A stretch of 64,000 bases of DNA, taken from the NCBI GenBank assembly GCA_963840035.1, contig CAWIXE010000002.1, positions 800,001-864,000 on the forward strand, given 5' to 3'. The stretch is from a candidate division FCPU426 bacterium. GTDB lineage: Bacteria; Oederibacteriota; PGYV01; Palsa-1178. The position numbers were made by a program, and so were the translations under genes. Of the stretch, positions 27,115 through 38,400 are shown in pieces. The notes under the pieces are model-generated. The model saw only the letters and a list, made by a program, of their open reading frames with translations. It had not been told where the DNA came from and searched no databases. Position 1 is the first letter of the stretch, and every line of letters begins with the position of its first letter.

Positions 27115-27275
27115 GTAAAAAGTCTCCTTTTTCACCAAACGAAATGCCAATTGTCCCAAAAGGGACATCGGGAAGAATATTTTATAATAAAACAGGGTAA
27201 AAGACAATAGTTATATAGTATAAATGATTGGTTGGTGTTTTGTTTGAATTACTAATTACCAATTACTAATTAGTT

Positions 27276-28350
27276 CGGTTCTAACATTTAACGCAACACT
27301 TTGATAGGATTATACTTTCAAAGGAGGCGTTAATAATCAATGAAGAATCCGAACTACAAGAGGTTAAGTTTCGAAGAACGGGAAGAAATTAGCAGGTATT
27401 TAGCAAGTGGTCTAAAAGCTGGCCGAATAGCAATGTTGATAGGTAGAAATAGAAGCACCATAACGAGAGAAATAAGAAAGGGTTTTAAAACAAATACATA
27501 TCGCGCGGTACAGGCGAATAATAGAGCCAAAAGAAACGCCAAAAGGCGAAGGTTCGGAAAACGTAAGATAGATAAGTGTAAAAGATTAAAAAGGTTCATT
27601 GAAAAGCATCTCTGGTTAAAGTGGTCACCGGAACAGATTGCAGAAAAATTGAAAATAGAGTATCCTACGGACATGGACATGAGAATATCACCCGAGAGTA
27701 TTTATGCATATTTGTATGTGAAGCCCAAAAGCCACTTGAAAAGAGAAGCTGCTAAAGCAGTTTCGGCAAAAGCATTCCAGGCGGTTTAAAAGGAATGCCA
27801 GAATGACCGGAATTGCAAAGGATTTAGAAGATATAACAAGCATAGATGAACGGCCTGCGGAAGTTGAAACACGAGAGATTCCCGGACACTGGGAAGGCGA
27901 CTTAATGATTGGCAGACTTCGGCAGTCAGCCATCGGAACGCTTGTTGAAAGAAAAACAAGGTATTTACGGATTGTCCGGTTAAAAAACAGGACGGCAAAA
28001 GAAGTCAAGAAACAATTTGAAGCTACGTTTAAGAAACACCCTAAACAACTTAGATTGAGCATGACATATGACCAAGGCAGAGAAATGGCGGATCATAAAG
28101 CTCTAAGTAAGGCGTTAAATATTAAGATATATTTTGCGCACAAGAGAAGCCCGTGGGAACGTGGAACAAATGAAAACACAAATGGGTTAATACGGCAGTT
28201 TTTCCCTAAAGGCACAGACTTCAATAAGATAAGTTTAAAAGAACTCAGGTATGCAGAAAGACTGTTAAATCAAAGACCCAGAAAAACTTTGGGCTGGAAA
28301 ACACCCGAAGAGGCGTTTTATCAAGATGTTGCGTTAAATACTTGAAACCA
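27276..28350 (+). mobile_element. IS30-family insertion sequence (ends approximate)
   Basis: Terminal IRs share ATTTAACGCAACA / TGTTGCGTTAAAT; AGTT present on both flanks; IS30 transposase inside. Confidence 0.9.
27340..28345 (+). pseudogene. IS30 transposase with a +1 frameshift at about 27746 (possibly a sequencing error)
   Basis: LSFEEREEI, STITREI, WSPEQIA; then GHWEGD, TYDQGREM, SPWERGTNENTNGLIRQ. Deleting one A gives the continuous LKRELLKQFRQKHSRR. Confidence 0.88.
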
Positions 28351-28449
28351 AGTTACTAAATATAACGCTTCGCGTATATTATAATAAGTGCAACAGCACA
28401 CCTTAATCAGTAATTGGTAATTAGTAATTATTAATTTCGTTCTGAAAAA

Positions 28450-29619: not shown

Positions 29620-29725
29620 TTATTTGATTATAACGATTTTTTTTACAACCTTATTTTTACCTGCAACAATCTCATAAAAATATGTGCCGTTTCCCGCCCA
29701 TTTACCCGCGTCATTTCTTAAGTCC
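29620..29725 (-). pseudogene. Orphaned 3' end of a secreted-protein gene (T9SS type-A CTD/FlgD-like C-terminus)
   Basis: Reads (W)DLRNDAGKWAGNGTYFYEIVAGKNKVVKKIVIIK*, starting exactly at the element boundary; too short for the ORF track. Confidence 0.8.
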
Positions 29726-29753
29726 TGTCCTGCCTGTCAATTATTGTCACTTT

Positions 29754-30803
29754 TTACCCCGCAAATTGGTTGACATTTTGTTCTCCGGATTTGATCAAAC
29801 ACAACCCCATATCTACAACTGATTTTACCACGGCCTTCCTCACAACGTCAAGTTTATCCAGTCCCGGTATTTTCTGTTTTTCAATTTCCGCAATCGCATT
29901 TTCAGCTTTTTTAATTAGCTCATGCTTTTCTTCGTTTTTGTATATTTCTCCGTTTTTGAAAACTTCAGCGCTTGTTTTGCCGTCAAATATACGCCGCGGC
30001 ATTTCGTGATTAATCTCATAAATCGCTCTTTCAAATTTGGCGTATACTTTTTCGTAATTTAACCCTCCTTTTTCAGTTTTCAGATATTTCTCAAATATCT
30101 GATTTTCGCGCTCCAGTTTCCCGTTGAAAAGCGGATAATGCCCGGGGCTGGGCATCGTGAGAATCTCTTTTTCTTTCAAATAACTTATTAATACTTCGTT
30201 CTGAAACTCAGAACCCCTGTCAGTTTTAACCACAAGCGGTTTTATTCCCTGCTCGTTCATCACGCGTTCAAGCAGGATTTTCGCCTTTTCACCGGTATTT
30301 GAATAACTCATAATCCAACCAAGCACACACCTTGAGTACTCCTCAAATACCAGCTGAACATACACATACCCTTCTTCGCAGCGTATTTTAATCGTATCTA
30401 GCGCCCAGCTGACATGCTTTTTTAGCCATTCAACTGACTTGTACTCTTTCTTTCCCGCTTTTTGCTTTTTCCTGGGCCCAAAATACTCATAAACTATTTT
30501 TGCAACGCTGCTTGGCGATATACCCGCTTTTATTGCCAAAACATAATTAGTTGATATTTCCGAAAACCTCCGTTTTAATTCCAGCACCCGGAGTATTGTT
30601 TCACCAGACAAGGCCCACGGCGCATGTTTCGGCCCTGTCTTTTGGGGTTCCAGGGTATCTTTCTTTTTCCACGCATAATAATACTCCCTTGGAACCCCGA
30701 TTGAATCAAAATACGCCTTTATACTTCCTCCGTTTTGTACGGTTTCTTCGGCACTTCTGAGTATATTTCTTTTAACACTTTCCGCATATTGGCGTTTTTT
30801 TTT
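29754..30803 (-). CDS. IS3-like OrfB (rve/DDE), reached by -1 frameshift from OrfA
   Basis: WALDT, EEYSR, KTDRGSEF, NGKLER. The -1 frame is open from the A9C run (KKRQYAESVKRN...WALSGETILR); the stop lies inside the IR. Confidence 0.82.
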   Translation of the reverse strand, partial: KKKRQYAESVKRNILRSAEETVQNGGSIKAYFDSIGVPREYYYAWKKKDTLEPQKTGPKHAPWALSGETILRVLELKRRFSEISTNYVLAIKAGISPSSVAKIVYEYFGPRKKQKAGKKEYKSVEWLKKHVSWALDTIKIRCEEGYVYVQLVFEEYSRCVLGWIMSYSNTGEKAKILLERVMNEQGIKPLVVKTDRGSEFQNEVLISYLKEKEILTMPSPGHYPLFNGKLERENQIFEKYLKTEKGGLNYEKVYAKFERAIYEINHEMPRRIFDGKTSAEVFKNGEIYKNEEKHELIKKAENAIAEIEKQKIPGLDKLDVVRKAVVKSVVDMGLCLIKSGEQNVNQFAG

Positions 30804-31225
30804 GCGCCGTCTTCATCGTTTTTTTCAAAGAAGCTCGTTGCTTTCCTGGCTATCTGCAGTTCCTGTGTCGCCTTTTTCTTTTCTTCCTCCAGTATCCGGA
30901 TCTTTTCCTCCAGCTTCCGCTGTTCTTCCTGCGCCTTTGTCACTGTTTCCCTCAGATCCTCTTCCTTCACGTAGTTCTTCGGCTTCCTGCCTCTCTTCTC
31001 CGTCTTCAGGAACGCCCTGGCTATCCCTTCCAGCGCTATTTTCTTCCACTCCCGGAACGTCTCCCTCGATATATCCATCTCCTCGCAGACCTGTTTCACC
31101 TTCTTTTCCTTTGCCATTACTTTCAGTACTGCCTGAAACTTCACCTCGTATGGGATTTCCCTGTAGTACTTCGTGGATTTCTGTTCCATCATTTCCTGCT
31201 GAATTTTCTCCTGTTCCATTTTCAA
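30719..31225 (-). CDS. IS3-like OrfA (HTH plus coiled coil)
   Basis: YEVKFQAVL...KQVCEEMDISRETFREWKK HTH, leucine-zipper-like LEEKIRILEEEK, ending near A AAA AAA AAC. Confidence 0.82.
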   Translation of the reverse strand: MKMEQEKIQQEMMEQKSTKYYREIPYEVKFQAVLKVMAKEKKVKQVCEEMDISRETFREWKKIALEGIARAFLKTEKRGRKPKNYVKEEDLRETVTKAQEEQRKLEEKIRILEEEKKKATQELQIARKATSFFEKNDEDGAKKNANMRKVLKEIYSEVPKKPYKTEEV

Positions 31226-32399
31226 TTACCCCCTTATTTTCTTTATTTTCCTTTTTTTCCTCCACTGCATCTAACCCCTCAACCATAACACTTCCTTCTT
31301 TTGCTATTACCCGTATTTCTTTTCCGCCTATTTTTCCGATTAAATACATAGGCTCTTTTAATTTTCTCGGGTCAACAATTAGCGCGTCTTTTACCATTCC
31401 TGCCCCTTTTTCCATAACTTCACGCACCGACTTTTCAACGCTGAAAAACCTGTCAGCAGGCAGTAACCCATCAATCCCCTGATGCGGCCTTTTGAAGTTA
31501 TACCATTCCACCCATTTTCCTATCTTTTCCTGCGCGTCTTCAAAGCTGGATATCGGCTCTTTACTTAGTAATTCCTGGTACATATTCCGCCAGAGCGATT
31601 CAACTTTTCCGCAGGTTTGGGGATGATACGGCCGGCTTCTCAAATGGCTTATTCCGCTTCTTGTAAGGAATTTTTGAAATGTGCTTTTCCCCCTCCAACT
31701 GGCAAACTGCCTGCCGTTATCAGTAAGCACTTCTTTTGGCATGCCGTACTTTTCTATCGCGTTTTTTAGCACATCCAGGACCCTGTCGCTGGTTTGGTTC
31801 CGAAATACCCCTATACTGACGACAAACCGCGAATAATCATCCAGACATGCTATTACATATATCCGGTACAGCCCCTGCAGCATAAATGTCATTATATCCA
31901 TCTGGTACATGTCGCCGGGTTTGCTTCTTTCAAAACGCTGCGGTTCCTTTTGACTATTTCCATGCCGCAGGCTTTTTTCCTGTACCATTGTTGCTGTCTG
32001 AGGGTCGGTTCGGAGGACTTTTTCAATACCGTCGCGGCATACTTTTACGAACTTATTGCGCATCAAATAATCCCCGATTTTCTTAACTCCAATTCCGGGA
32101 TTTTCCAGCTTTAATTTGACTATTTCCGCTTTTACCGCTTCCGGTACTTCCTGCGCTACTTTGCCGCCGCGGTTATCTTCCAGCCCCTCTTCACCGCCTG
32201 TTTTGTACCTTTCTTGCCAGCTTTTAAAAGTACCGACGCCCATTCCATACCACTTACAGAACATAGTAATAGGCGCACCTATCTGTTCAAATTCTTTTAG
32301 CAGTTTTAGTTTTTCTTCTTTTGAGTAGATTTTACCGGCGGAGTCGCTTTTTGTGTATTTTCTCTTTCCCTTTTCTTTCTTTTTCTTCATGAACCACAT
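30825..32399 (-). CDS. IS481-like transposase (HTH-HTH-rve) with a long tail overlapping OrfA
   Basis: KSWQERYKTGGEEGL, YQMDI, LDDYSRF, LTDNGRQF, HPQTCGKVE, WYNFKRPHQGI. Confidence 0.9.
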   Translation of the reverse strand: MWFMKKKKEKGKRKYTKSDSAGKIYSKEEKLKLLKEFEQIGAPITMFCKWYGMGVGTFKSWQERYKTGGEEGLEDNRGGKVAQEVPEAVKAEIVKLKLENPGIGVKKIGDYLMRNKFVKVCRDGIEKVLRTDPQTATMVQEKSLRHGNSQKEPQRFERSKPGDMYQMDIMTFMLQGLYRIYVIACLDDYSRFVVSIGVFRNQTSDRVLDVLKNAIEKYGMPKEVLTDNGRQFASWRGKSTFQKFLTRSGISHLRSRPYHPQTCGKVESLWRNMYQELLSKEPISSFEDAQEKIGKWVEWYNFKRPHQGIDGLLPADRFFSVEKSVREVMEKGAGMVKDALIVDPRKLKEPMYLIGKIGGKEIRVIAKEGSVMVEGLDAVEEKKENKENKGVIENGTGENSAGNDGTEIHEVLQGNPIRGEVSGSTESNGKGKEGETGLRGDGYIEGDVPGVEENSAGRDSQGVPEDGEERQEAEELREGRGSEGNSDKGAGRTAEAGGKDPDTGGRKEKGDTGTADSQESNELL

Positions 32400-32490
32400 A
32401 TATTTTACCTCCTCTTTCGTTGAATTTCCAGAGGTAAAATGTCAACCTATTTCAATGGGTTAGCAGTTATGATAATTGACGGCTAGGATA

Positions 32491-35400
32491 ATGAAAAGCG
32501 CCAGGTCATAACTGCCGTTTGCCAGCGATGATATGTCCCACACAGCCAGTTTGCCGCCGCTGTTTATCTGCATGTTCTTTGCAGTGGTTGTCACGGCGCC
32601 TCCGGTGTATTCCTCTGGCAGTTCCAGATATGTGTATCCTTCATCAGGATTTCCGTTTTCATCCATAACCACATAGTCAGACGGCCTGTATCCGAGCATA
32701 TATCCCCTGAAAGCCTCGCCGCCGGTGGCGATCCCGGTCACTGCAAGAGTATCACCGTCTGCCTCCGCGTTTAACACCATATCATCAGAGGCGGCTTTTC
32801 CGCCTATCTGGTTTATCTGCGGCACTATCCTTCCTTTTACTATATAGCACGTGCCGGCGCATTCATTGCCGAAAACATCCTGAACGCGTATTTCCGCCCT
32901 GTAAACGCCGTCAGGTACATATCCGTAACCGCTCCCCATATCGCCCATGCCGTCCCATGTGATGCCGTTAACCGGCGCTGAAAGCACACTGCGGTATTGT
33001 GAAGTATTCGCTGTATCCGTCAGGAAGTTATAAAAATAATATTTTTCTCCCCTGTACTCGTCTATGTCGCCGTATATGCCTGAGTAGCGCAGGGTTATGG
33101 CTTCCTTTTTTTCTATGCCGTCGTATAATTCCCTGACGACCTTTCTCTGCGACGGATTGCTTTCATTTGTGGTAATTCTTACATCAGCGTATACATACTT
33201 TGAAGTGGCTGCCATGGGCGTAAAGTATATGGCTGTGCATGTCCTGCCCTTTGACTCCTCTTCAGGGTTGAAAATAAACGGAGAGGCATACGGAGGGTAG
33301 CGCAGTACAGGCGGTTTGTCTGCCGGAAGAAGATAGTACTTTCCTTTTGCCTGAGCCACCTTTGTCATGGCAGTATAAGCGCCGGCAGGCTTCTGCGTCC
33401 CGGCTATGAGCGCCCTTGCTGTGGTGGTGACGCACTGCGCGCCGCATGTATTGCTCTCTGTCTCGTTATATATACCCAGATTATCAGCGATTATACTTTT
33501 TGCCTTTGCCTTTTCATCCGCGTACACATAATCAGCCGAACCTGATGACAATCCAAATATGGAATCAAGCCCGGGTATGTCAAGGTCTTCATCAGTGTAT
33601 CTTATGGTTATCTGCAGAGGCTCCGCATTATCGTACAGCAGTGTTGTATCCAGCGCGGGATATATGCCGTACTTGGATGTTATGGCGCTGTACATATCCG
33701 ACATAAGCGGCGGGCTGCAGGGTATGTTTTCAGAGTAGACATTTACGTACTGTGTATCCTTTACTTTCCACGCAGGAACAAAAAGCTCAAACTTTATGTA
33801 CGGGTCTGTCACTATGGTGCCTGCCGTGTTTGATACGTCTATAGGCGTGCCTATGGTCAGCTGCGCCCTGTCAACTTCCGCGTCCGCGCAGTCAGAGACG
33901 TAGTCATATCCCATGTTCACGTCGCTTATGGTAGTGCGTATGGTGTACTTGCCGTAGAGCCTTTTTGACCACACGTCCCATGCGGTCATAACCTGAAATA
34001 ACGGCCCTTCTTTCCTCTGATTTGAGGCTGTTATGCCGCCGTCAGTAGAAAAATATGTGCAGGAAGTATTTGCTTTATCTATCCAGCCGGGCGCGTATTC
34101 CATGCGCCACTCGCTTAGCTTTAGCGCGTCAGCGCCTCCCATGGCTGTGATAAATGACCTTCCGGTATATCTGCTTTTAAGCTTAAACCTAAACTGCCCG
34201 GAAGCGGGCACTTTATTGTCTGTGATTTCAGACCCGTTTATATCTGCCATGACAAGGTCAGGGTTTATAGTGTCGTCAGGATAGGTTACCCTCACGTCTT
34301 TTCCGCCGCATCCGGCCGCGGTTATGACATCGCTCATGGCGCTTTCCCCGAGCCGTGCTGAAAGGAAATTAATGATACCTCCGCCCTGAGCCGCGATACT
34401 CGCGCCTATCCCGAACAAGCCGTTATCATATGCCTTCCACTTGTATGATGTCATGGGCACAGCGCGCGAGCCGTCCTGCGGGAAGGATGTACCTGCAAGG
34501 TATGCTGTGAATTTCTTTTCCACTGTATACCCTCCGGCGTTCATGGTCCAGACATTTATGTTGTTTTTCCCGGCGTGCGGCAGGGGTATGTCCAGCGCCC
34601 AGTCAGCCTTGCCGCGCTTGCCGTCTGCCGTGGTCATCAGGGTGGTGTCTATTTTCAGGATTGTTGTTACCACCGGGCCGTTATCAGCCTGCCCGTACAC
34701 CTGTATGAACTGCGGGAAGTAATCAGAGGCCCACCCTTCCACATGCAGTATGGCCCTGTCAGTGCTTACCCCGCGTATAGCACCATCATAACTCTCCAGC
34801 GGCTTTTCCGCCTGCGGCCTGTAGGGATAAAAGACCCCTATTTCACCCGGCTCATCTATATCCTTCATAATCTGCTCGGGGTTCATCTGCTGACCCTTAC
34901 CGTAGCTTAAGGAACTCAGCATTTCATTTAGCAGTTCACCGAGGAACGGTATGAAATCAAGCTTTATGGGTATGGGCAGTTCCAGCTTCGGGAAATCAGG
35001 AAGTTTTAGTTCCTTCATTATTGCCGTGCCTTTTTTCGACACCTCATCACGCATGTTTTTTATAACCGGATTGTCGCTTCCAAGCTGATTTTGCACTGTA
35101 TTCAAGAGATTTCCGGGTTTTGTATTAAATATTGAAACTATTATTGGCCCTATGTTTGTAATGCCGCTTGTTATTGGCTCAGGTACATAGTGTAACATTT
35201 TCAATAAATCACCTATCAGACCCATCATTTCTTCATCCAGTGTCACAGGAGCCTTATCAGAACCGCCGCTTGCCTTTATGGTAAGTCTTTTTAGTTTTGA
35301 AAGGTTCGCGGATACAGCGGATAAATTCCTGTTACTGAATGTATCAAGCCATTTCCCGCCTTTTTGTATATCACTCTTTGTGCCGTCATACTTTTCTATA

Positions 35401-38400
35401 TAGTCTGCCACCTTTGTAGCCATGTCCCATATCTCTTTTTCCCAGTCTATGTCTTTTAAATCAGGTATAGAACTTGATTCACAACCGCCCAGTATGGACT
35501 TGGTTACAGTCTCAGAGCTTATCATGCTCTCTAACTGACTTGCTGTTATTTTATTTCCGCCAAACCCGGGAAAATTATTTCCACCCGGTATTTTATCTGT
35601 CAGTTTATCAAGCTCTGATGCACCTGCTTCCATGGCTTTACTTACTGCCCCATCTACTGCTTTAAAAGCATAGGCTTTTATGGTTCCCTCTGCCCATGTC
35701 TTGCCGTATCCGATGGCCCCCTGTAAAAGGTACTGAGCAAATCCCGGATTAGAAGTCATCTGCAATCCGCCAAGCAGAGCCATGCCTATGCTTACCTTAT
35801 TTGCTATTTTCTGGAATTCCATAACCCTGTCTATGGCTTCCTGATCTATCCCGCCCGCGCCGAGAAATGCGCCCGCGATGGCCACGCTTGCCAGGTCATC
35901 TGCCATTTGCATGTTATTTGTATTTCCCATGCCGTTGGGGTCTGTTAAGTAATTTAATACAGCGTTTCCGGACATACCGTCTGCTATTATCTTTGAGTTT
36001 GCGGGCGTATCTTCTGCATTGCCTTTTGGCATTATCATGTTCATAGCCCCGTCTAAGCCGGTGTCTATGGTATCACACGCGTTAAATTTTATATTATCAA
36101 GACCTTTGCTCATGTCGAGCTTGACGAAAAGAAGCTGGGGCGGTTTTACCCCCCTGAAATTCAGGCTTAAGTTAAACATCCCGGATAACTGCTTCCATAC
36201 ATCCGGCCCCTGAAGCTTATCAGGAAACCAGGCTATCTTCCACTTGGATAAATCCAGCCCCCATTTAAGTCCGCGTAAATCAGGCCGTGGTATTGCTTTT
36301 AATATCCCGGACAAATCAGGAACCTGCATACCAGGTATCCTGAATAACTTCCACAAATCAATCCCCGATAACTGCGGTAATATGCACAAATCCTGCCCCT
36401 GGTCATTTTTTAATCCAAGGTCACTTATAAAAGAAGCTAGCGTTGCCCCTGAAGCTATTTTCCCCGCCACAAAATCCGCGCTTTGCATGTTCACGCTTTT
36501 TAATCTTAACTTGTCACTTTCAGACATACAGGACAAATTGAGGTTGGGTAGCAGGTCTTTAATCGCTGCAAGAAGATCAAAACTGCCGAAGTTGATGTTA
36601 AGTTTGCTTAAAAGATCTTTCCAGTTTATTTTTAAGTCAGGAGCCTGGAAATCAAGGTTAAAAGAACTTGAGACCGAAGTCCCGGTTAAGGGTTTTACGA
36701 TACCTGTGTAATCCTGTCCTATTTTTTCAGGGTCAGCATCCGCGGATTTTATCATTGAAAATATATTAGTTTCATCCGAGCCAAGAACGCTGTGCTCATA
36801 CCCTTCCGCTTCATATAATCCATTATCTTTAAGTACAGGTGATTCTACAACTTGATCATTGAATGCCGCGTTATATTTGTCACTTACCTGCACGGCCAAA
36901 ACAATCGGGATAGACTCATTATTTTTAACGTTCGAGAGCAAAGAATCATATTCGGCTTTAGATATTTTTCCTTGGATTATTTCGGGGTATTCAGGATTAT
37001 TTTTTATTACATCGTATTTTATTATAGGTACTTCGTTTGCTTTTGGAAACTTTTTGTTCTTTAACGTTATTAATTTAGCGCTTAACTCTTCAGTAAAATA
37101 CAATCTTACGTCTAGGACGTTTTTATTGTCAGCACCTTTTGGCGGCTTTGATGCTTTTACACTTCTCAAAAAAAGATTGTTTTCAAATTTTACATTACCC
37201 CATTCAATCTGATAAACCGGATTACACCCCTGCATTATTTCAACCCGTTTTAGATAAACAGGACGCCACTTATAAAACTTTTCCAAGATGTCCTCTTCAG
37301 ACCAATTTTGGTCGCTTAGATACATAGCCCCCCCATGCGCTCATACCGCATTTGGAACCATTTAATAAGTCCGGCGGAACAGCTACGTCTGCTTCATCGA
37401 CAATATTTTCATGCAGATATGATTGAGCTTGTTTTATGACATTTTGTGAGCTTTGAATTATAGTATTTTTTGCGTTTTTCCCGGTTGAGTATCCAAATAC
37501 GTTAGTTAATAAATACGGAATTACCACTTTGTCATAGACACGCGTTCTTTTGAAATCATCTTTACTCATCAGTATTTTATTGAACCAAAAAGCCTTAACG
37601 TAGTATCTGATGTTTCCGTCCTGACTGATGGGCTTTGCTATATCATTTATGGCAAGGTTTATTAAATCCTTTGTTTTACTGCTGCCATAAAATGTTTTAT
37701 AAGGGATATAGTATTTCTGGCTGTCAGTATAACCATTTACTTTTATGTCCACATCAGAATTATTGTATGATTCATGTAATAATAAAGTGTAAGCCGCAAC
37801 AGCAAGCGCTTTAAAGCCATTTAAATATTTCGTGTCAGAAAAATCAGCATCACCAACCAGCCCATATAGTACGCCTTTTAAGTAATCTCTGATATCAACA
37901 TTCAGTATTTCAGGAGACGGAGTCGGTATAGGCACGCCAGTCTGAACAACCGTCGGAGTAATTGTTCCTGTTTCAATACTTGTAGCCGATGAACATGGTG
38001 TTAATAACACGATTTCCGTCGATTCTTCCGTAGGTATTTGATGCAGATCTTTAATAATGACTTTGTTCAGATAAAATACTGTTGCTGTCGGTGTTGGCAC
38101 AGTCGGGGTTGTAGTGCCGGACGGAGTTGCAGTGATTTTGCCTGAATATAAAACGAATTCTTTTGGCACTATAACAATTCTATGATTAGTATCCGCCCCG
38201 CCAAGATTAGTTTCATCTTGATCCTCCTCTGACATTTTGCTCTCATAACTCAGCCATTTTCCGTCAGAAGTTCTTTTTGCAACAGTCTCTGGATCCCGGT
38301 CAAGTTTATCCTGCATAAGACTATGTGCTTCTACAAATAAAAAATATTTGTCACTATATTTCCTCGCTTCTTCATCTGACAACTCACAACTCCCGGTCCA

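Follow-up and report, generated by a model that had tools for sequence, protein, structure and literature searches.

A widespread insertion sequence family with two different DDE transposases that may replace host DNA instead of duplicating its target

How does a mobile element move when it encodes two different transposases, and what does it leave behind in the DNA that receives it? The question is raised by an insertion sequence (IS) in a 64,000-nt stretch of contig CAWIXE010000002.1 (hereafter the window, whose positions are used for coordinates), from the genome of a candidate division FCPU426 bacterium (G000; three contigs, 98% complete). There, an initial annotation made from the letters alone had seen no sign of nesting and proposed one element of a two-transposase family. 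On the usual view a DDE transposase works as a homomer, and its paired, staggered attack on the target gives rise to a short duplication. A widespread IS family that combines two different DDE enzymes with 2-8 kb deletions instead of duplications, which is what the evidence below points to, would break both expectations.

The window element is confirmed as a single unit, with one pair of inverted repeats (IRs) around two intact-looking DDE transposases. The left IR (32490-32436) and the right IR (29726-29779) are identical at 40 of 55 aligned positions and enclose tnp1, orfA and orfB, all on the minus strand, which bears out the initial picture of an IS481-like gene and an IS3-like orfA/orfB pair between single IRs. 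Its finer points also stand: tnp1 starts 36 nt inside the left IR (about 35 had been given), the orfB frame ends within the right IR, and orfA is overprinted on the final 401 nt of tnp1. The full-length copies with the same ends that it had suggested looking for exist in G000, where three copies, each with different flanks, are identical over 2,765 bp and diverge exactly at both ends, an independent definition of the boundaries; since they are identical, the three copies are taken to be recent. As had also been noted, there is no internal IR, the best match of either IR inside the element being at shuffle level (19-25, against 47 for the left and right IRs with each other), also around 31181-31400. 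With no internal ends and three identical copies, chance nesting of one IS inside another is rejected.

Both genes encode recognizable DDE enzymes. Tnp1 (524 residues) scores slightly below the cut-off of the NCBIfam IS481 model (Table 1) and is 30-31% identical to annotated IS481 proteins; it comprises two helix-turn-helix (HTH) motifs, an RNase H core, a family-specific C-terminal beta region and a low-complexity tail that overprints orfA, and its catalytic residues are D168, D227 and E267 (QMD168 / TD227NG / KVE267), a DD(39)E arrangement. Its structural model has an integrase-type fold, for which the best predicted matches are IstA and TnsB. The second enzyme, Tnp2, would be assembled from orfA (168 residues) and orfB: fusion through a programmed -1 frameshift is predicted, a shift at the A9 run giving a stop-free OrfAB of about 490 residues. 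An A7-A10 run stands at or near the start of the orfB frame in most relatives listed, and in some relatives (L068, L083, L085 and L089, for example) orfA and orfB share one frame. The orfB frame is open from 30812 to 29757, with ALD / TDRG / KLE corresponding to D139, D198 and E234 of that frame; the DDE spacing is 35 residues in the window element and most relatives, and 34-36 overall. Both DDE domains match Pfam rve above cut-off. Against NCBIfam, orfB reaches 59 bits for IS3 and 61 bits for IS481, both far below cut-off (160 for IS3, with orfA, at 30.8 bits, scored separately). The orfB model (predicted local distance difference test, pLDDT, 88.7) likewise suggests an integrase-type fold, closest to retroviral integrases. 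Neither a TnsA-type nuclease nor a TnsC/TniB ATPase is encoded, the three open reading frames (ORFs) matching only rve and HTH families in Pfam and NCBIfam.

Table 1. Features of the two-transposase element and its flanks (window positions).
Feature	Position	Strand	Evidence or remark
Whole element	29726..32490	-	2,765 bp; three identical G000 copies with different flanks
Left terminal IR, about 55 bp, starts TAT, inner GGTTGACA box	32436..32490	-	40/55 identical to right IR
tnp1, IS481-like DDE transposase	30825..32399	-	NCBIfam NF033577 218.7 bits (cut-off 224); Pfam rve; alignment; model and fold search
orfA, HTH and coiled coil, N-terminal part of predicted OrfAB (Tnp2)	30719..31225	-	Pfam HTH_28/HTH_29/HTH_Tnp_1
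A9 slippery run, predicted -1 frameshift site from orfA to orfB	30795..30803	-	-1 product stop-free
orfB, second DDE domain, DD(35)E, extra HTHs, family-specific C-terminal helix-strand region	29754..30812	-	Pfam rve 42.4 bits
Right terminal IR, starts TGT; contains orfB stop and outward TTGACA hexamer	29726..29779	+	40/55 identical to left IR
Left flank: giant host gene severed by element	32491..37325	-	rest of gene missing from genome
Right flank: last 34 codons of a gene, like the C-terminal tail of giant proteins	29620..29725	-	translation; then ribH-like gene

The family is widespread, its layout being found again in many phyla. When genome contigs were scanned with Tnp1 as the anchor, 58 loci were recovered, with the labels Elusimicrobiota, Planctomycetota, Bdellovibrionales/Bacteriovoracaceae, Myxococcales, Hydrogenedentota, Coatesbacteria and others; Tnp2 lies downstream in 41, the contig ends too early in 10, 4 are truncated inside the element, and the rest are one Tnp1-only locus and two distant IS481-like outliers. 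Approached from the other side, the best 80 of 128 metagenome matches to Tnp2 (found with patterns from one clade, blind to divergent solo forms) have Tnp1 upstream in 67 cases, the contig starting inside the element in the other 13. Homologues of Tnp1 fall into 555 clusters at an E-value of 1e-60 or below; the Tnp2 profile matches 824 clusters (50% identity) at 1e-30 or below, and ordinary IS3 proteins may be among these. One member was found among viral contigs and none among plasmids, where the best match is 31% identical. G000 itself holds a fourth, diverged relative (C2, ~1,596.9-1,600.0 kb) with the same gene order and 66%, 29% and 34% identity for the three proteins; no IR pair was detected around it. 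Some members (L349, L351, L352) are longer, 3.8-4.0 kb, with extra room between the two DDE genes and possibly another ORF.

The two enzymes have travelled together. Among sequences from complete pairs, the DDE triad is intact in 78 of 78 Tnp1 and 77 of 78 Tnp2 proteins, the frameshifted copies L082 and L091 being omitted here and from the trees. For 37 elements, six near-duplicate loci having been removed, the Tnp1 and Tnp2 trees agree with a Mantel r of 0.954 (permutation maximum 0.27) and share 20 of 34 splits; the median ratio of nonsynonymous to synonymous substitution rates over 366 pairs is 0.15 for Tnp1 and 0.29 for Tnp2, which evolves about 1.4 times as fast as Tnp1. These values indicate that both transposases are under purifying selection and co-inherited. 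In a core-domain tree with outgroups (FastTree; deep branches poorly resolved), Tnp2 forms one clade and Tnp1 joins weakly with two annotated IS481 transposases (support 0.81). The initial annotation had asked whether homologues keep the three-ORF order and have congruent trees, and they do on both counts; together with the identical copies, order and congruence support its proposal of one element of a two-transposase family.

What the element leaves at its target is the second surprise: it leaves no target duplication. In 53 distinct elements with both flanks, with lengths up to 30 bp tested and the expectation taken from mismatched flank pairs, terminal matches of 0, 1, 2, 3 and 4 bp occur in 38, 9, 4, 1 and 1 elements against 36.2, 12.2, 3.6, 0.8 and 0.2 expected, that is, no duplication above chance; the longest of these matches, 4 bp at L146 and 3 bp at L118, do not exceed chance. 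The lack of a duplication marking a nested insertion, reported at the outset, thereby extends to the outer ends. For the three G000 copies, all nine left-right flank combinations match by at most 2 bp, which rules out flank shuffling among them, and no large flanking duplications are seen with 200-bp flanks. The family also has miniatures of ~200-230 bp that consist of the two ends only (L303:5307-5535, L305:718-914, L307:5255-5481); the two of them with both flanks likewise lack a duplication. As a control, two other G000 IS families, IS30-like by motif (C1:231409-232619 and C2:187586-188785, plus their copies), are flanked by 15-16 bp duplications in all 10 of their copies, and for another two families, whose ends are uncertain, the matches are 2-4 bp. 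Beside the ends of the two-transposase family no target consensus is found (28 left and 62 right flanks).

Host DNA is instead missing. At the window locus the element severs a giant host gene whose G007 homologue, 57% identical and with an open frame of 5,100 codons, extends 2,766 residues beyond the cut; residues 814-2969 of that homologue have no tblastn match in G000, and at least 6.5 kb of the gene is absent. The other flank opens with the tail of a gene, similar to a tail in the G007 protein and to a 69% paralogue in G000, with no Pfam match, and followed by a gene which, from its sequence, we take to be ribH-like. At another G000 copy (copy C), a UvrD-family gene is present as a 5' fragment that runs up to the element, and the rest of the gene was not found. 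More generally, a Pfam domain is cut at one end and not resumed at the other in L053, L059, L088, L094 and copy C. L131 replaces 1,917 bp of an IS21-like element that is intact in L049, and a 229-bp miniature in G147 stands in place of 7,698 bp of G536 and 7,695 bp of G158, both joints falling exactly at its ends; at these comparable empty sites the flanks are colinear across the gap. Empty sites sought for L055 and L305 (against relatives) and for L303 (against G155 and G151, with alignments short of the joints) gave nothing usable, and left-right end matching in G081 and G062 yielded nothing, the left flanks of the G081 copies being unassembled. That copies appear to mark deletions in place of duplications is the strongest result added here. 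An element found at sites of missing kilobases likely moves by DNA replacement, not by clean insertion.

Two observations on the flanks stand beside these. The UvrD-family fragment (G000 C1:344063-344262) has an intact paralogue at C1:496413, whose start it matches at 89% identity, and may for that reason belong to an island. RHS-core-like sequence lies at or near the right end of four elements (G000 C1:341098-341297, L031, L091 and L094).

How could two enzymes and a missing target duplication be connected? The account that we favour, with slightly less than even confidence, is that the element would be copied out as a circle, whose two ends would then be joined to host DNA uncoupled, at points separated by kilobases, with one end or one step falling to each enzyme; host repair would remove the DNA between the joined points and the element would take its place, without target duplication. 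The full element would then need both enzymes, and the deletion would occur in the same event as the insertion. A circle is suggested by the ends of one clade. When the right end is abutted to the left end with a spacer of 0, the Elusimicrobia-type clade yields a sigma-70 promoter (17-bp spacing) scoring at least 10 of 12 from 33 of its 37 end pairs; the mean score is 10.3 of 12, against 6.7 for shuffled sequences and 8.8-8.9 for same-end controls, and a circle intermediate is predicted in this clade. The initial annotation had suggested that the enzymes split the work, as excision versus integration or as one enzyme per end; for the latter it pointed to the different ends of the window element (TGT and TAT), a sign that does not hold up. 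The right end is TGT in 25 of 25 pinned elements and the left end TGT or TAT (one TGC), with TAT in some clades and TGT in others, so the asymmetry is not general: many members are TGT at both ends. A TA-ended left end is also found in IS2, which has a single transposase and in which that end serves the junction promoter (PMC3219604).

Several observations weigh against this account. The circle is predicted from one clade only, and is therefore extrapolated to the window element: the promoter appears at spacer 0 in 0 of 12 end pairs outside the Elusimicrobia-type clade, the window element included, whose junction reaches 8.5 without a spacer and 10 with a spacer of 8; same-end control junctions also outscore shuffles, and no real right-left junction occurs in the fetched loci. 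The deletions stand on two precise empty sites and one one-sided comparison, and for L131 the empty site is an IS21-like element in its own right, where the right flank aligns over only 28 bp. L192 shares its right flank with L193 and L052 and differs from them on the left, and short-read assemblies may mispair flanks across multi-copy elements; mispairing nevertheless fails to explain the three-contig genome, its internal IS control or the miniature. Co-inheritance is not perfect either: there are six conflicts of well-supported splits between the Tnp1 and Tnp2 trees, all within the Elusimicrobia-type clade. Finally, single enzymes occur. L042 (1-1500) is Tnp1-only, with both IRs and no orfA or Tnp2; some 11 short Tnp1 proteins, most of which share one truncated end, are interspersed with tailed forms and nested among them; and five Tnp2-only genes, from a search of 401 genomes, form a clade beside the Elusimicrobia-type Tnp2.

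One rival is normal insertion, with a short duplication, after which a flank is lost, very early and with near certainty, by adjacent (intramolecular) deletion or when neighbouring copies recombine. Deletions of the adjacent type are on record: in the data of a long-term evolution experiment, 14 of 83 IS events combine a deletion with no duplication (PMC11708052). The many one-ended remnants and truncated copies of the family speak for early flank loss. Such loss predicts, however, that some duplications survive, and none of the 53 elements has one above chance, the three recent G000 copies and two miniatures among them; moreover, in the same paper duplications accompany all 69 events without a deletion (PMC11708052). 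We regard this explanation as unlikely. Contigs of one DNA sequencing run contributed two 150-bp pieces without joints, which favour neither view.

Somewhat less likely again, in our judgement, is that Tnp1 is the sole mover and OrfAB an accessory (for example for one-ended joining or deletion) or a protein supplied in trans, with no obligate pair. The persistence of a Tnp1-only lineage with both IRs and intact ORFs points this way, as do the Tnp2-only clade at a single end, whose upstream junction varies, and the faster evolution of Tnp2. Yet both solo groups look derived and nested inside the family and make up a small minority of loci, Tnp2 keeps its triad almost without exception, and the Tnp1-only form is one locus, its left terminus cut by a contig edge and its mobility putative; the L042 draft genome has no detectable Tnp2, and a single-ORF form is found in the family only in this derived lineage. 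The initial annotation had held that either transposase occurring alone with its own IRs would refute its proposal of a two-transposase family. L042 is in part such a case, for Tnp1 with both IRs, and the Tnp2-only clade has one end only; both are nested in the family. Since both lineages exist, an obligate enzyme pair is unproven.

An improbable alternative is that the element patches existing double-strand breaks or resected gaps without cutting the target: the absence of a target consensus next to the ends would fit, and such patching has been suggested for IS5 and IS481 events that occasionally combine large rearrangements with a lack of duplication (PMC11708052), but what is an exception there would have to be the sole route here, and the conservation of two catalytic triads speaks for active strand transfer. 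An IS3 element nested by chance in an IS481 element, with duplications missing through assembly artefact, is scarcely credible: flank mispairing was seen once in short-read assemblies, but there are no internal ends, three copies are identical, the same order with congruent trees spans phyla, other IS in the same assembly retain their duplications, and the 229-bp miniature, which read pairs can span, shows the 7.7-kb gap against two genomes.

The reduced forms deserve description in their own right. The short Tnp1 proteins related to L042 are P0052, P0054-P0057, P0059-P0061 and P0063-P0065, and in the Tnp1-only lineage a consensus-like TTGACA-17-TATACT promoter overlaps the stop codon and is directed outward through the right end. 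The Tnp2-only loci (L207-L211, in G426, G126, G109, G253 and G343) have their own start codon, and each gene lies behind a single end-like motif, with no partner end or Tnp1 found within up to 75 kb downstream. Judged from sequence, a rhodanese-like gene and a gene for a giant surface-type protein come next in G126, G109 and G253, and a gene for a giant protein does in G343; on the upstream side G126, G253 and G343 have fragments of RHS type or resembling toxin-immunity genes, and a repeat gene of this sort is cut by the end in G343. Genomes carrying the family also contain numerous one-ended remnants, 25-280 bp long (L293, L294, L295, L297-L302, L308). A Tnp2-only locus could be a retained one-ended deletion device for toxin cassettes. 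A bolder form of the replacement account, which we consider rather doubtful, would see in the family a new transposition class: a heteromeric transposase of two DDE enzymes, each joining its own end of a spacer-less circle to a target site of its own, every move exchanging kilobases of host DNA for the element, and one-ended Tnp2 derivatives kept beside RHS toxin cassettes as deletion machines.

Where does the family stand among known systems? IS481 elements normally encode one protein. The score of Tnp1 just under the cut-off of the IS481 model and the TGT...ACA ends of most members recall that family, from which the element differs by its three ORFs, two DDE domains and absent duplication; IS481 elements make duplications of 2-15 bp, mostly 6 bp, and IS3 elements duplications of 3-5 bp (PMC10045372). 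The likeness to the IS3 family (IS2, IS911, IS150) lies in the orfA/orfB overlap with an A-rich -1 window, in the DD(35)E motif and in the imperfect IRs, and the best annotated plasmid matches of OrfB are IS3 transposases (23-31% identity). Against this, a second complete DDE transposase lies upstream within the same IRs, so that OrfAB is not the only catalytic transposase, the IS3 score stays at 59 bits against the cut-off of 160, and a 3-5 bp duplication is lacking (0 of 53 above chance). The window element shares with IS2 the TA-ended left end, and one clade of the family a predicted circle-junction promoter, the predicted junction spacer being 0 there and 1 bp in IS2 (PMC3219604). Overall the element is hybrid-like between IS3 and IS481, without the single transposase and the target duplication that define both. 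Two catalytic proteins in one element and TGT...ACA ends are also found in Tn7, whose TnsA does not belong to the DDE enzymes and which requires targeting proteins and an ATPase and leaves 5-bp duplications; the predicted fold of Tnp1 resembles TnsB and IstA, and the two-transposase element encodes no ATPase. Tn554 and RIT elements have several paralogous catalytic proteins and are not known to make a target duplication, but these proteins are site-specific tyrosine recombinases, not DDE enzymes, and are not known to replace kilobases of target. A parallel in outcome is the set of IS-associated rearrangements described by Ngan et al. 2024 (PMC11708052), in which a new IS copy sits at the junction without duplication; in that work this is a minority outcome of single-transposase IS, and it is the apparent rule here.

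The family is apparently undescribed: no published description of the two-transposase layout was found in the literature searched, ISfinder and subscription journals being outside reach. It is hidden in annotation because pipelines call its two genes apart, labelling them separately as IS481, IS3 or hypothetical. With three ORFs in 2.8 kb, it offers a compact, testable system for how two transposon ends are coupled, and in bacteria of groundwater, sediment and soil it may regularly cause genes to be lost and gene fragments to be fused; should insertion and deletion be a single event, it could also provide the basis for a DNA-replacement tool.

The surroundings of the element hold other repeats. 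An IS30-family element lies in the window at 27260-28352, 1.4 kb from the two-transposase element, its transposase split into 27340-27789 and 27803-28345; it has three genome copies and stands among short repeats. Elsewhere in G000, intergenic tandem arrays with units of ~95-120 bp are numerous, for example at C1:196423-197780 and C1:378749-379792.

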